A stretch of DNA of 64,000 nucleotides, from NCBI GenBank assembly GCA_018817595.1, contig JAHITU010000007.1, forward strand, positions 8,775 through 72,774. The letters are read 5' to 3'. The notes beneath the pieces were generated by a model that saw nothing but the letters and a program-made list of their open reading frames with translations, was not told the DNA's origin and did not search any database. This DNA is from Patescibacteria group bacterium (GTDB taxonomy: Bacteria > Patescibacteriota > Minisyncoccia > Phycocordibacterales > UBA12079). Below, one piece after another: positions 25,841 through 63,846 of this stretch (position 1 is the stretch's first letter; every line of letters begins with the position of its first letter). Both the position numbers and the translations under genes were made by a program.

Positions 25841-25912
25841 GCCCTTGTAGTTCAATGGATAGAACAAGACACTCCTAACGTCTAGATCTAGGTTCGATTC
25901 CTGGCAAGGGCA
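25841..25912 (+). tRNA. tRNA-Arg (anticodon CCT)
   Basis: Cloverleaf folded by hand: acceptor GCCCTTG/CAAGGGC, D-stem GTTC/GAAC, anticodon loop CTCCTAA, T-loop TTCGATT, no encoded CCA. Confidence 0.85.
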
Positions 25913-26116
25913 CAAAAGGAGAAATCAGTAGCGATCTAGCTACTGATTTTTCTTTTCTTTTGTAGGTCTTGCCAGGAATCGAAAGACGGAGGCGCGAAGC
26001 CAATTTGTGAGCTTGCGAACAAATTGAAGCCGAGTTCGGGTCGAAGGTTCTTATTAAAATTTGAGCTTACGAAAAATTTTAATTAGAAACCTGTGACCGA
26101 TTCCTGGCAAGGGCAC
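25913..26116 (+). ncRNA. conserved structured element trailing tRNA-Arg; ends in a direct copy of the tRNA 3' end and holds an inverted copy internally
   Basis: Terminator hairpin, inverted CTTGCCAGGAATCG, conserved CGAAAGACGGAGGCGCGAAGCC...GCCGAGTTCGGGTCGAAG...TTTGAGC...GAAAAA...AATTAG core, then GACCGATTCCTGGCAAGGGCAC. The same architecture follows the Phe, Glu and Gln tRNAs. Confidence 0.6.
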
Positions 26117-26645: not shown

Positions 26646-26936
26646 AAAACAGCTAAAAAGCTGTTTTTTATTTTGTGCTGAGGGGCGGGCTCGGTCACGA
26701 ATCACTAAGTCTTTTATTTCGCCCTGCCTACCCCTGCGCGCCGGCAGGCGTGGACAGGCGTGGGCAGGCAGGTTCGCTCATAAAAAACAAAGTGTTCTCA
26801 ACCCCGTCTCGGCTTTTTCTTTTGCTTCGCTCCAGAAAATAGACCTGTGACTTTCGAGCCCGCACGAAAGCAAAGAAGTTTGCTTTCTCCTTCATCCCAA
26901 AATAAAAAAACAGCTAAAAAGCTGTTTTTTATTTTG
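26646..26936 (-). ncRNA. tRNA-Phe trailing structured element (minus strand) carrying an extra GC-rich repeat insert
   Basis: On the minus strand it reads tRNA, terminator, conserved core (GCCGAGACGGGGTTGAGAACACTTTG...ACTTAGTGATTCGTGACCGAGCCCGCCCCTCAGCACA), then a second copy of the terminator hairpin. It contains the GCCCCTGCGCGCCGGCAGG-type GC-rich block. Confidence 0.6.
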
Positions 26937-27009
26937 TGCTGAGGGGCGGGCTCGAACCGCCGACCCTTCGCTCTTCAGGCGAATGCTCTACCAACTGAGC
27001 TACCTCAGC
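26937..27009 (-). tRNA. tRNA-Phe (anticodon GAA)
   Basis: The reverse complement folds as GCTGAGG TA GCTC AGTTGGTA GAGC A TTCGC CTGAAGA GCGAA ... TTCGAGC ... CCTCAGC A. Confidence 0.9.
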
Positions 27010-27232
27010 ATATTTTATTTTTCTACCTACTGAGCCTGTCTGCCGGTGAGACAGGCAACCTCAGCATATTGATATTTATATATCATACCTTATTTATAGA
27101 TTTTTTCAATAATATTTACAAAAATTACATTTGCAAAAAATTTGAAAAAGTTATATTCTAAAAACTAGAAAATAACTTGTAAATTTACATAGACCAAATA
27201 ATCAGATTCTTAGAATTTGAGAGGAGGTTGTT

Positions 27233-47263: not shown

Positions 47264-47335
47264 GGCCTTATCGTCTAATGGTTAGGACATCGCCTTCTCA
47301 AGGCGGCAATCCGGGTTCGATTCCCGGTAAGGTCA
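47264..47335 (+). tRNA. tRNA-Glu (anticodon CTC)
   Basis: Acceptor GGCCTTA/TAAGGTC, D-stem GTCT/GGAC, anticodon loop TTCTCAA, T-loop TTCGATT. Confidence 0.85.
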
Positions 47336-47518
47336 CAAATCAAAAATAACAGTCTTTCTGACTGTTATTTTTTGATTCTAGTGAATCTCCTGTGGAGATA
47401 ATCGAAGGTCGGAAGAAAATCCGAGATTTTCTGAGACGGGGTCGAGAACACTTTGTAAAATTTGAGCAAAGCGAAAAATTTTACTTAGTGATTCGTGATC
47501 GATTCCCGGTAAGGTCAC
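47336..47518 (+). ncRNA. conserved structured element trailing tRNA-Glu; ends in a direct copy of the tRNA 3' end
   Basis: Terminator, CGAAGGTCGGAAGAAAATCC...GAGACGGGGTCGAGAACACTTTG...TTTGAGCAAAGCGAAAAA...ACTTAGTGATTCGTGATCGATTCCCGGTAAGGTCAC. Confidence 0.6.
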
Positions 47519-51112: not shown

Positions 51113-51748
51113 ATGTTAGTTTTTATTGATGAATCCGGAGATCCAGGATTAAAAATGAATAGCGGTTCAAGTCGGTTTTTTACTATTGCTTTGGTAGTAT
51201 TTGAAGATTATGATGAGGCTACTAATTGTGATAGAAGAATTGAATTATTAAAGAAAGAATTAAGTTGGAGTGATAATTCAGAATTTCATTTTAAGAAAAA
51301 CTCTTTAAGAGTTAGGGATTCGTTTTTTAAAGCTGTTATGCCTTATAATTTTTTCTATTATGGTATTGTCATAAACAAAGATCCTAACAAACTTTATGGA
51401 GAAGGTTTCAAGAATAAATCTTCTTTTTATAAATATGCATGTAGTCTTGTTTTTGAGAATGCAAAAGATAAATTAAGTAAATCAATTGTTGTTATAGATA
51501 AAAATGGAAATAATGAATTTCGTAATCAATTAGCTAAATATTTAAGAAGAAAGATGAACATTGATAAAAAGAAGATTAGAAAAGTTAAGATGCAGAAATC
51601 TGAATCCAACAATTTGTTACAGTTGGTTGATTATGTTGCTGGGGCAATAAATAGATCTATTGTTAACTCAAGAAAAGATTCTCAGGTTTTTAGAAAAATG
51701 CTTAGTCGTAAAGAAATGTATGTTCAAGTGTGGCCAAAAAAAGAATAA
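51113..51748 (+). CDS. DUF3800 family protein
   Basis: N-terminal MLVFIDESGD and C-terminal LQLVDYVAGAI motifs, both characteristic of DUF3800. Confidence 0.65.
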   Translation: MLVFIDESGDPGLKMNSGSSRFFTIALVVFEDYDEATNCDRRIELLKKELSWSDNSEFHFKKNSLRVRDSFFKAVMPYNFFYYGIVINKDPNKLYGEGFKNKSSFYKYACSLVFENAKDKLSKSIVVIDKNGNNEFRNQLAKYLRRKMNIDKKKIRKVKMQKSESNNLLQLVDYVAGAINRSIVNSRKDSQVFRKMLSRKEMYVQVWPKKE

Positions 51749-51954
51749 AAGAAAACCACCGAACCTATCCTTGCGGAACGCAGTGATAAACACTACAGTT
51801 TGGTTCGGTGGCACTTCCTTAATTGAAACTATAACATTTTATATCAAAAAATCAAGTAAACTGTGGATAACTAAAACATTGTAAATAAAATTTAAATTAG
51901 CTCTAAAAGAGCAGAACGGCTCAACGACTTGAGCTATTTAAAATAAATGAAAAT

Positions 51955-59010: not shown

Positions 59011-59220
59011 ATTTAATTATTTTAGTATTAAGTATTATGTAGTAAGTATTATGGAGGCCCGACTCCTGCTTATGGCAGGTTCAGGAAAATATTTTTCATC
59101 GTATGCTCGATACGACTCAAAATATTTTCCTGCTCTTCCTCGAACTGTATTCAATTTTGGGATTATTTAAAAAATTAAGCAATTAACTTTAAGGTCGGCA
59201 TTACCGACCTTTTTAAATTA

Positions 59221-59638
59221 TTCATTACAGCGCTCCAAGCGCTGTAATCATGTCGCAAAATTACTTGGACACCCGGTGTCCAAGTGGTTTTAATTTCTAG
59301 AAATTCTGATTGCGTCAAAATTAATCACAGTTCGCTAAAGGTGAACCATCTCTTTGAGCCTGTCCGTCTCAGATGTGGTGATAGCGAAACTATAACTATA
59401 GATGGTTACAAAATCAATCCAGAATCCATTCAACGAAGCAAGTCAGAAAATAATTTAAACTATTCCAATTGATTGGAATAGTTAAAAAATATCGCAAAAT
59501 TACTTGGACACCCGGTGTCCAATGATTCTAATTTTTAGAAATATTGATTTTTCTTGCTAATTCCTTAAATTTAATGTATAAAATCAACAGAAGTTTGGAT
59601 GAAAATTGAATAAATATTAAATAAAAAGGGGAGTAAAG
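59221..59638 (+). promoter_or_regulatory. conserved ~420-bp leader module, copy 1 (structured, with two palindromic operator-like sites overlapping promoter-like hexamers)
   Basis: Hairpin TTACAGCGCTCCAAGCGCTGTAA. ACTTGGACACCCGGTGTCCAAGT at 59263-59285 and 59502-59522. TTGGAC-17-TTTAAT geometry. Nearly identical to 60645-61106. Confidence 0.6.
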
Positions 59639-60592
59639 ATGAAAGCTTTAAAACCGAAAAGTTCAGAATTGTTTGTAGATTCTGTTAAAAGTAAAAAGGA
59701 ATGGATTATGAAAATAATTCTCTTTATTTTGGGAATTTTTATTTTGTTCTGTCTTTGGTGTGTCGGAACTGAGGCTGTGGCTGGAATAACCCAGCAAGAA
59801 ATAACCAATGACGGGGTAAACTCAGGAATGGGCGAAATCCCACAGATTTATAAAAAGGATGGAAAATTCTTTATTCATAAATCTCCAGCGGATATGGTTG
59901 TTGATGAGGCTCCAAAAGAATGGGGGATTTCGTCAGAAGATCAAGAGTCATTGGCTCTTGGTAAAAAGAGTTTTGTCTCTGTTTCTTCAAAGAAAATTGA
60001 ATTTATTTTTTGGGGAAAGTGGATCCCTGAAACCTTGACCGTTATTTACAAAAAAATAGTTAGAATTGAGGATGGAAAATTTTTTCTTTATCATCTTGAT
60101 CCTGTTATGGAACCTAAAATCCAATTTGTACTTCTAACCCTATCCTTCTTTGTCTTTAGTTGTGGTCTGGTTAATGGAAGATTTGCAGGTGTAAATAATG
60201 GTGGATTCTTATGGATTCCTCTTTTTTTATTAGGTCCTATAATTGTGTTGTTAATTATTTTCCTAATTCCATTAATTAATAAAATAATTTTAGAATTCGA
60301 AATTATTTTATTAGCAATTATTTTTTGTTTTATTTTATTATATTACTTATTCCATAAAAACAAAAAAAAAATAGTAACAACTAATGTAATTTCAATTTCA
60401 ATAATCATAATAATAATTGCAGTTTCATTTTTTTCTTGCAATTATTTACAGAATTTTTACTATTTTTTCCTTTTATATTTTCTTTCATATTTTATTTCTT
60501 TTTTCTTTACTCGAAGAAAAGAAGTAAAAGAAAAGAGGAAAGACATGAATTTTTCAAGAATAAGTGGAGTAGGGGGTTCTAAAAAAAATTAA
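59639..60592 (+). CDS. hypothetical polytopic membrane protein (paralog A)
   Basis: N-terminal signal anchor, soluble domain of about 110 aa, several TM helices. Paralog of the 61107-61877 product. Confidence 0.6.
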   Translation: MKALKPKSSELFVDSVKSKKEWIMKIILFILGIFILFCLWCVGTEAVAGITQQEITNDGVNSGMGEIPQIYKKDGKFFIHKSPADMVVDEAPKEWGISSEDQESLALGKKSFVSVSSKKIEFIFWGKWIPETLTVIYKKIVRIEDGKFFLYHLDPVMEPKIQFVLLTLSFFVFSCGLVNGRFAGVNNGGFLWIPLFLLGPIIVLLIIFLIPLINKIILEFEIILLAIIFCFILLYYLFHKNKKKIVTTNVISISIIIIIIAVSFFSCNYLQNFYYFFLLYFLSYFISFFFTRRKEVKEKRKDMNFSRISGVGGSKKN

Positions 60593-60644
60593 TCAGTGAA
60601 TACAACCCCAACCGGTGAGCCTTGTGCCCACCGGTTGTTTTATT

Positions 60645-61106
60645 TATTACAGCACTCCGAGCGCTGTAATCATGTCGCAAAATTACTTGGACACCCGGTG
60701 TCCAAGTGGTTTTAATTTATAGAAATTCTGATTTCGTCAAAATTAATCACAGTTCGCTAAAGGTGAACCATCTCTTTGAGCCTGTCCGTCTCAGATGTGG
60801 TGATAGCGAAACTATAACTATAGATGGTTACAAAATCAATCCAGAATCTATTCGTCTTTGAGAGGTGAATGGATTTTTGGTTTTTGTAAAAACCAAAAAT
60901 CCATTCAACGAGGCAAGTCAGAAAATAATTTAAACTATTCCAATTGATTGGAATAGTTAAAAAATGTCACAAAATTACTTGGACACCCGGTGTCCAATGA
61001 TTCTAATTTTTAGAAATTTAATATTTCTTGCTAATTCCATAAATTTAATGTATAAAATCAACAGAAGTTTGGATGAAAATTGAATAAATAATTTATAAAA
61101 AGGGGA
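60645..61106 (+). promoter_or_regulatory. conserved leader module, copy 2 (with a 52-bp hairpin insertion at about 60849-60906)
   Basis: >95% identical to 59221-59638. Palindromes at 60685-60707 and 60977-60997. Extra perfect inverted repeat GAATGGATTTTTGGTTTTTGTAAAAACCAAAAATCCATTC. Confidence 0.6.
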
Positions 61107-61877
61107 TTGAAGATGAAAACTTTAAAGTTTAAGGGCTCGGATTTGTTCGTGGATTCCATGAGAAACAACAAAAAAGTTTTGATAAAAACCTTTTTGATCA
61201 TACTGGGCTTGTTTATTTTATTTTGTATTTGTTGTGCTATTTGTGAAGCAAATGAGCAAGTATCGAATTTAAATCAGCAGGGGATTTTCTCTTCTGAAAT
61301 CTCTGAGGTTAAAAATGTTTTTAAAACAAGGACGGGGTGGGTAGTGTATAATGATTACCCTGACCAGGTTTTCATAGACCCTTTGGCCGATTGGGATTAT
61401 ATGAGAATTGATCCTAATTATCATAAAGAATTAAAAAAGGTAATCTTAGGCCAAGAAAGTTGTTATTCTGCCACTAAATTAAAAAGATATGTTGTTTTCT
61501 GGGGAAAATTAGTTCCGGAAGTGAGGAGTAAAACCATTTATCGAAAAATTTTTGTAAGGGATGGACAATGGGGTATTGTTGAATCTAATCCTTTTCACAG
61601 TAATGAAACCAATGCTTTCTTTTTATTGGTTCCTTTATTTGTGATTTTATTGGGAATTGTAACATGGATTTTTTTTAAGGATGACAGTCGAATAGGATTA
61701 TCGTTTTTTATATTGATAATTTCAGCTATGTCATATATTTTTAGTTTAGATTATTGGATGAACAGTTTATATTTTTTAATTTTTATTTCTTTGGGATTTT
61801 TCTTAGGCCTTCTGAACGAAAAGAAAAATAAAAAACCTTATTCAAAAACAGGCTCAACTCAAAGTGCTGAGTTGTAG
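61107..61877 (+). CDS. hypothetical polytopic membrane protein (paralog B)
   Basis: Same architecture as paralog A. The sequences are strongly diverged, unlike their leaders. Confidence 0.6.
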   Translation: MKMKTLKFKGSDLFVDSMRNNKKVLIKTFLIILGLFILFCICCAICEANEQVSNLNQQGIFSSEISEVKNVFKTRTGWVVYNDYPDQVFIDPLADWDYMRIDPNYHKELKKVILGQESCYSATKLKRYVVFWGKLVPEVRSKTIYRKIFVRDGQWGIVESNPFHSNETNAFFLLVPLFVILLGIVTWIFFKDDSRIGLSFFILIISAMSYIFSLDYWMNSLYFLIFISLGFFLGLLNEKKNKKPYSKTGSTQSAEL

Positions 61878-63136: not shown

Positions 63137-63207
63137 TGCCGGATCGTCTAATGGTAGGACACTGGTTTTTGGTACCAGCGATCGGGGTTCGAGTCCCTGT
63201 CCGGCAA
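63137..63207 (+). tRNA. tRNA-Gln (anticodon TTG)
   Basis: Acceptor TGCCGGA/TCCGGCA, D-stem GTCT/GGAC, anticodon stem CTGGT/ACCAG with loop TTTTGGT, T-loop TTCGAGT. Confidence 0.8.
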
Positions 63208-63612
63208 CTATAAAAATAAAGACACTAGAATGAATATTCTAGTGTCTTTATTTTTATTTGTCCGGCAGGGGCTCGAAAGACGAAGGCTGCGAAGCCAGTT
63301 TTTCGAAGAAAAACTGTAGCCGAGTCGGGGTCGCGAGTACTTATTATTTTTGAGTGCGAAGCACGAAAAAAATAATTAGTAACTCGTGACCGAGTCCCTG
63401 TCCGGCAACATATAAAATATAGACCCTAAAGCACTAGCTTTAGGGTCTATATTTTATTTGTCGGACAGGGACTTGAAACGAGCGAAATATATTTTTCTGA
63501 AGCGTTAGCGGAAGAAAAATTTGAGTGAGCAGGGTCGCGAGTTCTTAATAGAATTGAGTCCGTAGGACGAAAATTATATTTAGAACTGGAGACCGAGTCC
63601 CTGTAAAACAAC
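63208..63612 (+). ncRNA. two tandem copies of the tRNA-trailing structured element, each ending in a copy of the tRNA-Gln 3' end
   Basis: Copy 1 runs to about 63409 (…AATTAGTAACTCGTGACCGAGTCCCTGTCCGGCAAC). Copy 2 runs to about 63612 (…GAGACCGAGTCCCTGTAAAACAAC). Each has a terminator hairpin and an inverted TGTCCGGCAGGGGCTCG / TGTCGGACAGGGACTTG. Confidence 0.6.
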
Positions 63613-63846
63613 ATGATTAAATAACCCTAAAGCACTAGCTTTAGGGTCTATATTTAATATCCATCTACTATCACAGGTTCGAACCTGTGTGATGTTTAAT
63701 ATGGTTGGGTAGGGAATAGGTTTTGAAAACTAGTTAGTTAAAGAGAAATTATTGCATTAAATTTTAAAATGCGTTGCTATTTTTTTAGTAAGAGTGTATT
63801 TTATTAATAGATAGTTCGTTCAAATAAATCACTTAAGAGGTGTCCT

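Follow-up and report, generated by a model that had tools for sequence, protein, structure and literature searches.

Non-coding cassettes with a conserved predicted RNA fold behind tRNA and tmRNA genes of Patescibacteria

Two consecutive units of about 200 nucleotides (nt) follow the tRNA-Gln gene in a 64,000-nt stretch of DNA from a Patescibacteria group bacterium (contig JAHITU010000007.1), hereafter called the window. Each unit ends in a copy of the tRNA 3′ end, and neither contains a called gene or an open reading frame (ORF) of at least 100 amino acids. The locus raises the question of what such units are and how two of them came to stand behind one tRNA. The analysis described here takes up a sequence-only reading of this DNA and extends it in two respects. 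The units belong to a phylum-wide family tied to tRNA and transfer-messenger RNA (tmRNA) genes, with a covarying RNA core, and their antisense arm tracks the upstream tRNA while the downstream 3′-end copy decays. The interpretation preferred here, to which we give an even chance, is that they form a new family of structured, non-autonomous cassettes whose insertion or recombination takes place where a tRNA-like 3′ end adjoins a terminator hairpin.

The sequence-only reading had placed two tandem copies of a trailing element at 63208-63612, and repeat analysis bears out both the coordinates and the strings. Unit 1 spans 63209-63409 and unit 2 spans 63410-63612 (201 and 203 nt), and both are laid out alike, with a hairpin, an antisense arm, a conserved core closed by GTGAYCGA and, last, a repeat of the tRNA 3′ end. 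The parts of the array are as follows, where CM R1 is the covariance model (CM) described below.

63137-63208, plus strand: tRNA-Gln(UUG), called by ARAGORN; Rfam tRNA score 61.3 bits
63190-63208, plus strand: segment T, CGAGTCCCTGTCCGGCAAC, the last 19 nt of tRNA-Gln from T-loop C56 to the discriminator plus C, which recurs downstream
63210-63257, plus strand: hairpin A of unit 1, a perfect 22-bp stem (inverted repeat I4, 100% complementary)
63258-63277, plus strand: arm 1, TTGTCCGGCAGGGGCTCGAA, antisense to tRNA-Gln positions 54-73 by reading of the sequence
63278-63393, plus strand: core 1 (lineage A), CM R1 match 63266-63402, 102.5 bits, ending in GTGACCGA
63391-63409, plus strand: tail 1, CGAGTCCCTGTCCGGCAAC, an exact 19-nt copy of the tRNA 3′ end (repeat families D1/D4)
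63410-63457, plus strand: hairpin B of unit 2, including CCCTAAAGCACTAGCTTTAGGG (inverted repeat I2, 25 nt, 96% complementary)
63458-63477, plus strand: arm 2, TTGTCGGACAGGGACTTGAA (inverted repeats I5 and I7, and the fold)
63478-63596, plus strand: core 2 (lineage B), degenerate, CM R1 match 63466-63605, 56 bits, ending in GAGACCGA
63594-63612, plus strand: tail 2, CGAGTCCCTGTaaaaCAAC, a decayed tRNA 3′-end copy (repeat family D1, 81% identity)
63624-63658, plus strand: hairpin B′, 97% identical to hairpin B, closing the array (repeat family D5)
63672-63689, strand not applicable: perfect 18-nt palindrome CACAGGTTCGAACCTGTG, T-arm-like, just past the array

Direct-repeat families run across both units at a spacing of 201-204 nt: D1, with the copies GATCGGGGTTCGAGTCCCTGTCCGGCAACTA, AACTCGTGACCGAGTCCCTGTCCGGCAACAT and AACTGGAGACCGAGTCCCTGTAAAACAACAT; D2, a 52-nt core block at 79% identity; and D3, the arms, at 85% identity. 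Inverted-repeat pairs (I5, 16 nt, 94%; I3, 26 nt, 85%) join the arms with the preceding tRNA-end copy. The inverted arm that had been claimed for each unit is therefore present, as 63258-63277 and 63458-63477 are each complementary to the tRNA 3′-end copy before them. Read as plus-strand RNA, arm 1 forms three G·U pairs and one mismatch with the tRNA; arm 2 pairs at 20 of 20 positions with tail 1 (18 Watson-Crick, 2 G·U) and at 81% only with its own tail. In the minimum free energy fold of the whole array every arm pairs with the preceding tRNA-end copy (z = -16.8), arm 1 reaching 63188-63207 across hairpin A. Core 1 contains a junction AAAG, a 3-bp helix P2 with an extension, GGG, and a long irregular hairpin P3/P4 that bears ACUUAG/CUUAGU-like boxes, and core 2 has several broken or non-canonical pairs. 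Both units score in CM R1 (E = 2.8e-22 for unit 1 and 3.2e-11 for unit 2), partly by construction, as both are among the 41 family members of its seed.

Two statements of the sequence-only reading hold in part. It took each copy to reconstitute the tRNA 3′ end, which is exact over 19 nt in unit 1; the tail of unit 2 has decayed to GTCCCTGTaaaaCAAC, and the tRNA end is regenerated only in part. It also gave both units the same type of hairpin. The CCCTAAAGCACTAGCTTTAGGG hairpin occurs in unit 2 (63423-63457) and in the extra copy at 63624-63658 only, and the hairpin of unit 1 is unrelated. That third hairpin copy (97%) and the T-arm-like palindrome at 63672-63689 were both found as described, and the palindrome CACAGGTTCGAACCTGTG may be an arm-tail relic without a core. 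Palindromes centred on TTCGAA number four in 903 kilobases (kb), and the other three are ordinary terminators. Hairpin A is flanked by A-rich and T-rich sequence in the manner of a terminator; a consensus terminator scan (GC-rich stem plus T run) calls hairpin B′ (63624-63647) and the palindrome and leaves hairpins A and B, which have AT-rich stems, uncalled. A Logan contig (L002; L numbers denote fetched loci) ends inside hairpin B, where a 32-nt stretch recurs in hairpin B′, and we take this end to be an assembly break at a repeat with no bearing on copy number.

The history of the array can be read from the same locus in relatives, which were found as contigs with homologues of the upstream dnaX/holB-like protein at 84-94% identity; the syntenic loci L202, L222, L251/L229 and L163 came from a metagenome scan. 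The units fall into three lineages. Lineage A (window unit 1, L127 unit 1, the distal unit of L123) has 76-78% identity, lineage B (window unit 2, the L129 unit) 80%, and lineage C (the proximal unit of L123, L127 unit 2, the L124 unit) 84-87%, with 60-72% between lineages. Behind tRNA-Gln they are arranged as follows.

Window: A, then B
L127: A, then C
L123: C, then A (the closest relative, upstream protein 94% identical)
L129: B only
L124: C only, a wreck of 22 bits
L202: one A-like unit
L222, L251/L229 and L163: no unit

The element thus behaves as a unit, as had been proposed, in that copy number and composition at the locus vary among relatives from none to one or two units. The L163 tRNA is identical to the window tRNA-Gln at 69 of 71 positions; in L222 and L202 the tRNA and the hairpin are identical between the two and the unit is present in L202 only, where it starts directly after the T tract of the hairpin. 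Within lineage A the arm changes along with the tRNA: the window has CCCTG/TCCGGCA and an arm with CCGGCAGGGG, and L127 has CCTAG/TCTGGCA and an arm with CAGATAGGA. Old tails retain the older tRNA sequence, for example tail 2 of L127 (CCCTG).

These comparisons bear directly on slipped duplication, which had been offered as one origin of the array. Units 1 and 2 are 72% identical overall, each has its nearer counterpart among the units of other genomes (78% and 80%), and in the window no array is detected by Tandem Repeats Finder, so that slipped duplication is excluded at this locus. A recent slippage or unequal crossover that doubled one inert spacer unit here only would explain the head-to-tail arrangement and the 201-203-nt period, and the family does include identical tandem copies at another locus (L012). 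We nevertheless find it scarcely credible: unit 1 is nearer to the L123 and L127 units (76-78%) and unit 2 to that of L129 (80%), the single units of L129 and L124 belong to a different lineage, and the order in L123 is reversed. The alternative of the sequence-only reading, repeated placement at a regenerated tRNA end, fits the series of none, one and two units, the lineages and their order. Its more specific form, integration into the element's own att site, is unproven, as the 64-kb window holds no recombinase and unequal homologous recombination between tRNA-end copies could yield the same arrays.

What the units have in common is the core, which is about 110 nt long, ends in GTGAYCGA and has a conserved three-helix fold. 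On comparative evidence this core is predicted to be a plus-strand RNA structure. The structure tested was drawn by hand: P1 pairs the arm with the tail, P2 is a 3-bp helix with an extension, and P3/P4 is a long, irregular hairpin. CM R1 has 125 positions and 37 pairs. In alignment A2 (41 sequences) 91% of cells are paired, 25 of the 37 pairs are changed on both sides, and the covariation score is 0.45 against a shuffled mean of 0.15. The corresponding values in alignment A4 (113 sequences, fitted to the model) are 92%, 31 of 37, and 0.50 against 0.16. None of 500 shuffles reached the observed value in either alignment, and slid controls paired 31-40% of cells in A2 and 31-42% in A4. The middle pair of P2 occurs as AU, CG, GC or UA. 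One G·U pair in P3 is kept in 111 of 112 sequences and would be an A·C mismatch on the opposite strand, which argues that the plus strand is the one that folds. Several unpaired stretches are nearly invariant (CGAAAG, GAG, GGGG, ACUUAG/CUUAGU and GUGAYCGA), with the qualification that conservation is inflated because the regular expression fixed some letters and A4 was fitted to the model; double substitutions are not created in that way.

The family is neither confined to tRNA-Gln nor to this genome. All four tRNAs of the window (Arg, Phe, Glu and Gln) have a unit or units behind them, and the core regular expression, run over the 64 kb, finds exactly five units, all behind these four tRNAs, and nothing else. 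The three sister units are listed here.

25914-26116, plus strand: unit behind tRNA-Arg(CCU) (25841-25913), CM R1 match 25972-26109, 105.3 bits
26640-26935, minus strand: unit behind tRNA-Phe (26936-27009, minus strand), CM R1 match 26682-26864, 88.6 bits
47337-47518, plus strand: unit behind tRNA-Glu(CUC) (47264-47336), CM R1 match 47395-47511, 95.8 bits

The tRNA-Arg unit has hairpin, arm and core and repeats the tRNA 3′ end exactly. In the tRNA-Phe unit a conserved hairpin splits the arm, P4 carries a 54-nt GC-rich insert, and the tRNA 3′ end is duplicated together with the terminator hairpin over about 51 nt; this unit lies outside the CM R1 seed and yet scores 88.6 bits. In the tRNA-Glu unit a small hairpin takes the place of part of the arm.

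A scan of a one-genome-per-species collection with the pattern GGGTYG-N6-CTT-N25-50-TTAG-N6-GTGAYCGA found at least 117 loci, all in records titled Patescibacteria, a subgroup of it, or unclassified bacterium. Among the matches listed, the named groups are Yonath-, Kaiser-, Nomura-, Campbell-, Taylor-, Zambryski- and Lloydbacteria, Paceibacteria and Minisyncoccia, and the named records belong mostly to Parcubacteria/Paceibacteria groups. A tRNA called by ARAGORN, of any isoacceptor type, stands less than 600 nt upstream on the same strand in 91 of the 121 matches listed. Many of the remaining matches lie at the edge of a locus, behind a tmRNA, or behind tRNA 3′ ends that ARAGORN does not call and that possibly belong to intron-containing genes. 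Cassettes follow tmRNA genes in L056 (3040-3918, three in tandem; Rfam tmRNA 119 bits) and in L017 (1204-1967, two; 92 bits), and these cases indicate that the family targets tRNA-like 3′ ends in general and not tRNAs only.

When CM R1 was run over the fetched loci, 99 of 174 tRNAs carried one to three units, a fraction that is biased upward because the loci were chosen for having at least one. A strong hairpin lies within 45 nt downstream of 94% of the unit-bearing tRNAs and of 57% of those without a unit, and among unit-less tRNAs with another tRNA within 150 nt downstream only 1 of 14 has such a hairpin; the units sit at the end of tRNA transcription units. Degenerate units of 22-60 bits are common. 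Core identity is 0.666 within a genome and 0.624 between genomes, a difference reached by 2 of 2000 permutations, and the excess within genomes includes identities of 80-85% between units at different tRNAs. Scanning metagenomes with the tRNA-Gln 3′ end was of use mainly for locating empty orthologous sites; of 100 loci searched with the model, 8 had units.

The flanks of the core differ from tRNA to tRNA, and here the tail and the arm follow separate courses. The tail begins with the CGA that forms T-loop positions 56-58. Over 15 nt it is identical to the tRNA 3′ end in 30 of 78 units, or in 35 of 78 if one mismatch is allowed, and in the rest it has decayed to the random level. Identity mostly ends 16-19 nt past CGA, just beyond the tRNA end, and in the youngest-looking units it continues through the terminator hairpin (about 51 nt for Phe in the window; also L004 and L020). 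The arm is kept. Seven units with decayed tails (L030, L042, L052, L074, L090, L112 and L115) have cores of 82-117 bits, and in these, 7 of 7 positions in the acceptor part of the arm are able to pair with the tRNA, against 0-3 of 7 with the tail of the same unit. Where a tRNA stem has a pair other than Watson-Crick, 27 of 36 arm positions complement the 3′ strand and 7 look like the 5′ strand, and the arms of tRNA-Ala units have A opposite U70 in place of G3. The arm is accordingly an inverse copy of the 3′ end, and not the remnant of a duplicated tRNA or an aminoacylatable mimic. An anchor-based count made without selection for pairing gave 85% Watson-Crick pairs between the arm and tRNA positions 59-65, with 25 G·U against 12 A·C, an excess that is a weak hint of constraint at the RNA level.

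Several other origins of the arm were tried and rejected. A miniature tRNA copy, with the arm derived from the tRNA 5′ strands, does not agree with the 27 of 36 positions that complement the 3′ strand; a primer-binding site would call for a complement to CCA, which the arm does not have; and an aminoacylatable minihelix is at odds with the loss of G3·U70 in tRNA-Ala units. For the core, the consensus sequences of K-turn and hammerhead junctions do not fit, as judged by inspection only. The 3′-terminal CCA is not encoded in the window tRNAs (ends at 25913, 26936, 47336 and 63208) or in most tRNAs of the fetched loci. Almost all tRNAs have C after the discriminator and then A-rich sequence, and the cassette tails copy this C too.

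The matching of arm to target extends beyond tRNAs. In L026 (5270-5440) a cassette stands behind the terminator of rpsI, the gene of ribosomal protein S9, in an 8-kb locus with no tRNA. At 10 of 10 positions its arm GCGTTTTGAC is complementary to the final codons of rpsI, and its site GGTCAAAA resembles the T-loop GGTTCGAA; this case indicates that an arm takes its sequence from, or becomes matched to, the stretch in front of the hairpin, whatever that is. About 40% of units, the Phe unit of the window among them, have a conserved hairpin of 24-26 nt within the arm, at the exact boundary of its acceptor and T-stem parts. This hairpin has a covarying 9-bp stem, a CUGC loop and the closing sequence AGC...GCG, and its position suggests a bipartite, tRNA-shaped recognition helix.

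26865-26893, minus strand: optional arm hairpin of the window, found also in L005, L008, L014, L039, L042, L047, L049, L063 and others

How the parts might work together can be put as a sequence of steps. In the preferred reading of mobile cassettes, a cassette would enter a site made of a tRNA-like 3′ end and a terminator hairpin. The arm and the tail would be made from, or matched to, the local target, the tRNA gene would stay intact, and a fresh copy of the target would be left behind the cassette, so that further cassettes could land on either copy. Recombination between target copies would delete, duplicate or reorder units, and the A-then-B array of the window would represent two separate events and not a recent duplication. 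In a read-through RNA the arm would zip onto the tRNA 3′ end through the hairpin as a helix of about 45 bp that sets the conserved core beside the T-loop, and the core RNA would serve processing or spread of the cassette together with a trans-acting enzyme. Repeated placement is favoured because of the series of none, one and two units, the three lineages and the reversal in L123. It also fits the way distal tails decay, the cassettes behind tmRNA genes and rpsI, and the slight but significant excess of core identity within genomes. A bolder version seems improbable to us, namely that the core is a new catalytic or RNA-guided machine whose arm docks on tRNA-like 3′ ends and which performs or directs strand exchange at the CGA junction of the T-loop, inserting a cassette or swapping the tRNA 3′ end for its own copy. 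Such a machine would amount to a protein-poor mobile RNA/DNA element, programmed by base pairing, whose guide is written by the element itself on the model of its target.

Several observations weigh against mobile cassettes. Among the genes of the 64-kb window, Pfam finds no integrase or recombinase, transposase, reverse transcriptase or TnpB-like ORF, and the listed ORFs of seven long gaps between a tRNA and its module include no obvious recombinase or transposase, as judged without a domain scan. Viral contigs contain no unit, their single match being a chance hit inside a high-GC coding region. The cores do not cluster clearly by tRNA or by genome (0.64, 0.66, 0.62), so that recent jumps between tRNAs do not follow from them. 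The hairpin inside the target-matched arm could not be produced by simple fold-back copying. The differences in number and order could arise from an old multi-unit array through unequal homologous recombination and differential loss, and the conserved unpaired nucleotides and tRNA-tracking arms fit a host function equally well.

The last point leads to the strongest rival, which we regard as doubtful and still well ahead of the alternatives that follow. In this explanation the unit is a cis-acting RNA of the host, a 3′ trailer of tRNA and tmRNA transcription units, and arrays arise only by local duplication and unequal crossing-over. The arm would pair with the tRNA 3′ end in read-through transcripts, and the core would recruit or perform processing, for instance cleavage near the T-loop or the 3′ end, disposal of read-through RNA, or an entry site of the RNase III or RNase P type. 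The strong covariation of the core and its invariant unpaired nucleotides speak for such a function, as do the arms that stay complementary to the tRNA while tails decay (G·U 25, A·C 12) and the tRNA-end:arm helices in the array fold (z = -16.8). Very small genomes carry the family, which occupies roughly half of the tRNAs of the fetched loci as well as tmRNA genes. The window includes a gene for RNase III, the tandem copies of L012 are 100% identical, which shows that plain tandem duplication happens, and most of the patterns could have arisen from an ancestral array of several units by differential loss. Against this stand the dispensability of the units, with orthologous tRNA-Gln genes that have none or a 22-bit wreck, and the presence of three lineages at the same locus in close relatives. 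Moreover, a strong terminator-like hairpin separates the tRNA from the unit, one unit sits at an mRNA terminator (rpsI), and each tRNA would need an independently tailored arm, for which the host explanation offers no mechanism.

A further comparison is with genomic islands and prophages that integrate into tRNA or tmRNA genes (tyrosine-integrase tDNA islands; Islander, PMC4383910). Like these, the cassettes occupy tRNA and tmRNA genes, have their border in the T-loop and 3′ end, and leave the gene regenerated with a displaced 3′ fragment at the far end; successive insertions give tandem arrays in both. An intact tRNA with a displaced 3′ fragment is found for Gln, Arg, Phe and Glu and for 30 of 78 family members, and an integrase inside the element is lacking in the tRNA-Gln units. 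The cassettes differ from islands in being about 200 nt long, non-coding and free of an integrase, in having a covarying RNA core and an antisense copy of the target, and in that a single core family is found behind all tRNA types, each time with flanks matched to the tRNA in question. True islands also insert between tRNA and unit, as L078 illustrates.

It is very unlikely, in our judgement, that the units are scars of integrase-borne islands, that is, islands or prophages deleted internally after integration at the tRNA T-loop with a replacement 3′ end. Such islands are recognised by an intact tRNA whose displaced 3′ fragment forms a direct repeat (PMC4383910), and islands do use these sites: L078 (119-6323) has a 6-kb insert between tRNA-Ser and a unit. 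This insert encodes a large serine recombinase and separates tRNA-Ser from its orphaned cassette. The left junction ATARGTTCG is common to the orphan cassettes of L078, L108 (1840-2172) and L012 (640-1130, minus strand), which come from different genomes, and L078 and L108 share about 120 nt of homologous non-coding sequence before it. An island between a tRNA and an already complete unit means, however, that the unit is not part of the island. Random deletion would not leave a shared, covarying 110-nt core at 117 or more loci in many assemblies, scars would carry no antisense arm that tracks the tRNA, and no unit occurs on viral contigs. An autonomous parent element was looked for as well; Pfam finds housekeeping genes only in the window, which is a stretch of 31% GC belonging to metagenome contig k141_50138 of ENA ERZ27247128, and the L078 island is separate from its unit.

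Elements of the IS200/IS605 group, palindrome-associated transposable elements (PATEs) and TnpB omega-RNAs depend on hairpins, insert by a short motif, and combine a scaffold with sequence identical to the right flank. The cassettes resemble them in their hairpins, in the short motif, and in a scaffold followed by flank-identical sequence. From this likeness one may construct an RNA-guided homing module of the IS200/IS605 type, in which the core is the scaffold and the tail, identical to the tRNA end, a 16-nt 3′ guide. The T-loop GGTTCGA would be the adjacent target motif, which the GTGAYCGA of the unit lacks, and a nuclease encoded elsewhere would cut empty tRNA sites and so favour copying of the cassette. 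A scaffold with a 3′ guide equal to the flank follows omega-RNA logic, the two bases that precede CGA are exactly those at which junction and T-loop differ, and Rfam gives a weak full-length alignment of unit 2 to IS605-orfB-I (RF03065). We think this construction quite unlikely all the same. The alignment has 14.3 bits against a gathering threshold of 94.2 (E = 1.7) and is absent for the other four units, including those of Arg, Phe and Glu; no tnpA, tnpB or tnpB-like gene occurs in the window, and none is apparent in the ORF lists of the seven gaps flanking modules. The guide-like tails decay in many high-scoring units in which the antisense arm is kept, and cutting an essential tRNA gene would be hazardous. 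The cassettes further depart from IS200/IS605 elements in that their target is duplicated both directly and inverted.

The nearest published work describes group I introns at tRNA positions 35/36 in Patescibacteria, which are rich in them (PMC13011429). The unit might be a T-loop intron-like element, a self-splicing or enzyme-spliced insert between tRNA position 58 and the downstream 3′-end copy, with the upstream end and terminator acquired later, and a transcript with an intact tail could indeed fold as a cloverleaf with a T-loop insertion of about 200 nt. This, too, is very improbable, as the tRNA upstream is complete in every well-resolved case and tails decay. No locus was found in which the tail is the only 3′ end; inspected for this, L108, L078 and L012 have no tRNA 5′ part upstream. 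Rfam gives no group I or group II match, with Intron_gpI absent at both gathering and E-value thresholds, and the unit borders read TTCGA|G and GACCGA|G, without the U and omega-G that mark a group I intron.

Class C (IIC) group II introns are structured RNAs that settle just downstream of intrinsic terminator hairpins, with targets that are partly base-paired. The position behind terminator hairpins and the partial pairing with the target are shared by the cassettes, whereas their core of about 110 nt has three helices in place of six domains and comes with no intron-encoded protein and no evidence of splicing. Nakagawa et al. report no group II introns in Patescibacteria (PMC13011429).

Two further comparisons concern the shape of the arrays and the ends of the units. 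The cassettes differ from miniature inverted-repeat transposable elements in that no repeat pairs the two ends of a unit and the duplicated target measures 19 to about 51 nt. Long inverted repeats occur only between an arm and the neighbouring tRNA-end copy, inside hairpins, or inside the core. Integron cassettes with attC sites form arrays separated by long imperfect palindromes that are reshuffled at a fixed chromosomal site. Palindrome-separated units with gain, loss and reshuffling at a fixed site are likewise what the tRNA-Gln locus offers, but in the cassettes the tRNA 3′ end makes up the palindrome, which varies with the tRNA, and the cargo is a conserved RNA and not an ORF. No shared GTTRRRY or RYYYAAC boxes appeared on reading about 40 units, and the window holds no integron integrase gene (intI).

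Some RNAs carry tRNA-like 3′ modules that are processed by tRNA enzymes, such as mascRNA of MALAT1, viral tRNA-like structures and tmRNA. In a similar way the arm and tail of a cassette can form a 12-bp helix that mimics acceptor and T stem with a discriminator base, and this helix might, by analogy, be cut by RNase P and undergo 3′ trimming and CCA addition. The likeness ends in the loop, where the T-loop nucleotides are paired and the core replaces the loop, and in maintenance, since tRNA-Ala arms have A3 in place of G3·U70 and tails decay. Such modules are treated in PMC8457004. ARAGORN and the Rfam models RF00005 and RF00023 call no tRNA or tmRNA on any unit and find only the four true tRNAs of the window.

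A search of Rfam with five units at E ≤ 10 gave no convincing family, the sub-threshold matches being hairpin noise of the microRNA and small-RNA type. At gathering thresholds, over the window and 11 loci, only tRNA, tmRNA, DUF3800-IX and LOOT pass. The main text of a paper on 224 motifs (PMC5737381) contains no description of the cassette, and none was found in the literature covered, which was incomplete, so that a prior description is possible. Both tRNA-Gln units have what defines the family, namely a CM R1 match, a position behind a tRNA-like 3′ end, an antisense arm and the GTGAYCGA junction. The cassette regenerates a tRNA end as tDNA elements do, yet lacks the defining features of islands, miniature inverted-repeat elements, IS200/IS605 derivatives, integron cassettes and introns; we therefore consider the element to be of a new kind, and our confidence in the mechanism is moderate.

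If mobile cassettes are the right reading, a structured RNA cassette stands behind about half of the sampled tRNA genes, and behind tmRNA genes, of abundant uncultivated bacteria. It would add a new class of conserved bacterial RNA fold with an antisense arm that changes with the target, a candidate ribozyme or guide scaffold. It would also mean that tRNA 3′ ends can be occupied without an integrase, which bears on tRNA landing sites and on the tolerance of repeats in very small genomes. In practical terms, repeated tRNA ends and hairpins break short-read assemblies (L002) and can mimic the att sites of islands, and CM R1 provides a handle for a census, for transcriptome mapping and for biochemistry.

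Some minor observations remain from the window and the fetched loci. A perfect 20-bp GC-rich palindrome, CCTGCCTGCCGGCAGGCAGG, is scattered with longer variants through the window genome and other Paceibacteria, and looks like a second mini-element resembling REP (repetitive extragenic palindromic) sequences. Some copies fall inside cassette cores and tails. The copies lie as follows.

Window: 24857, 25332, 27889, 40987, 50866, 11865, 18171 and 26715-26775 (the last inside P4 of the tRNA-Phe unit)
Other loci: L029 5213; L063 5298 and 6462; L103 3689 and 5501

At 27030-27066 (minus strand) the 5′ acceptor strand of tRNA-Phe, GCTGAGGT, recurs about 50 nt upstream of the gene, flanking the GC-rich hairpin GCCTGTCTCACCGGCAGACAGGC. 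A LOOT RNA (Rfam 64.5 bits) lies at 3852-3985 of L012, the Patescibacteria contig that also has the two identical tandem cassettes. In the window a DUF3800-IX RNA (51751-51812, minus strand; Rfam 47 bits, above gathering) stands directly downstream of the DUF3800 protein gene at 51113-51748 and on the opposite strand from it. Lastly, a direct repeat of about 500 nt (59218-59714 and 60640-61188, 78-97% identity) spans the upstream regions and 5′ ends of the adjacent ORFs 59639-60592 and 61107-61877, and looks like a tandem gene duplication that includes the leader.

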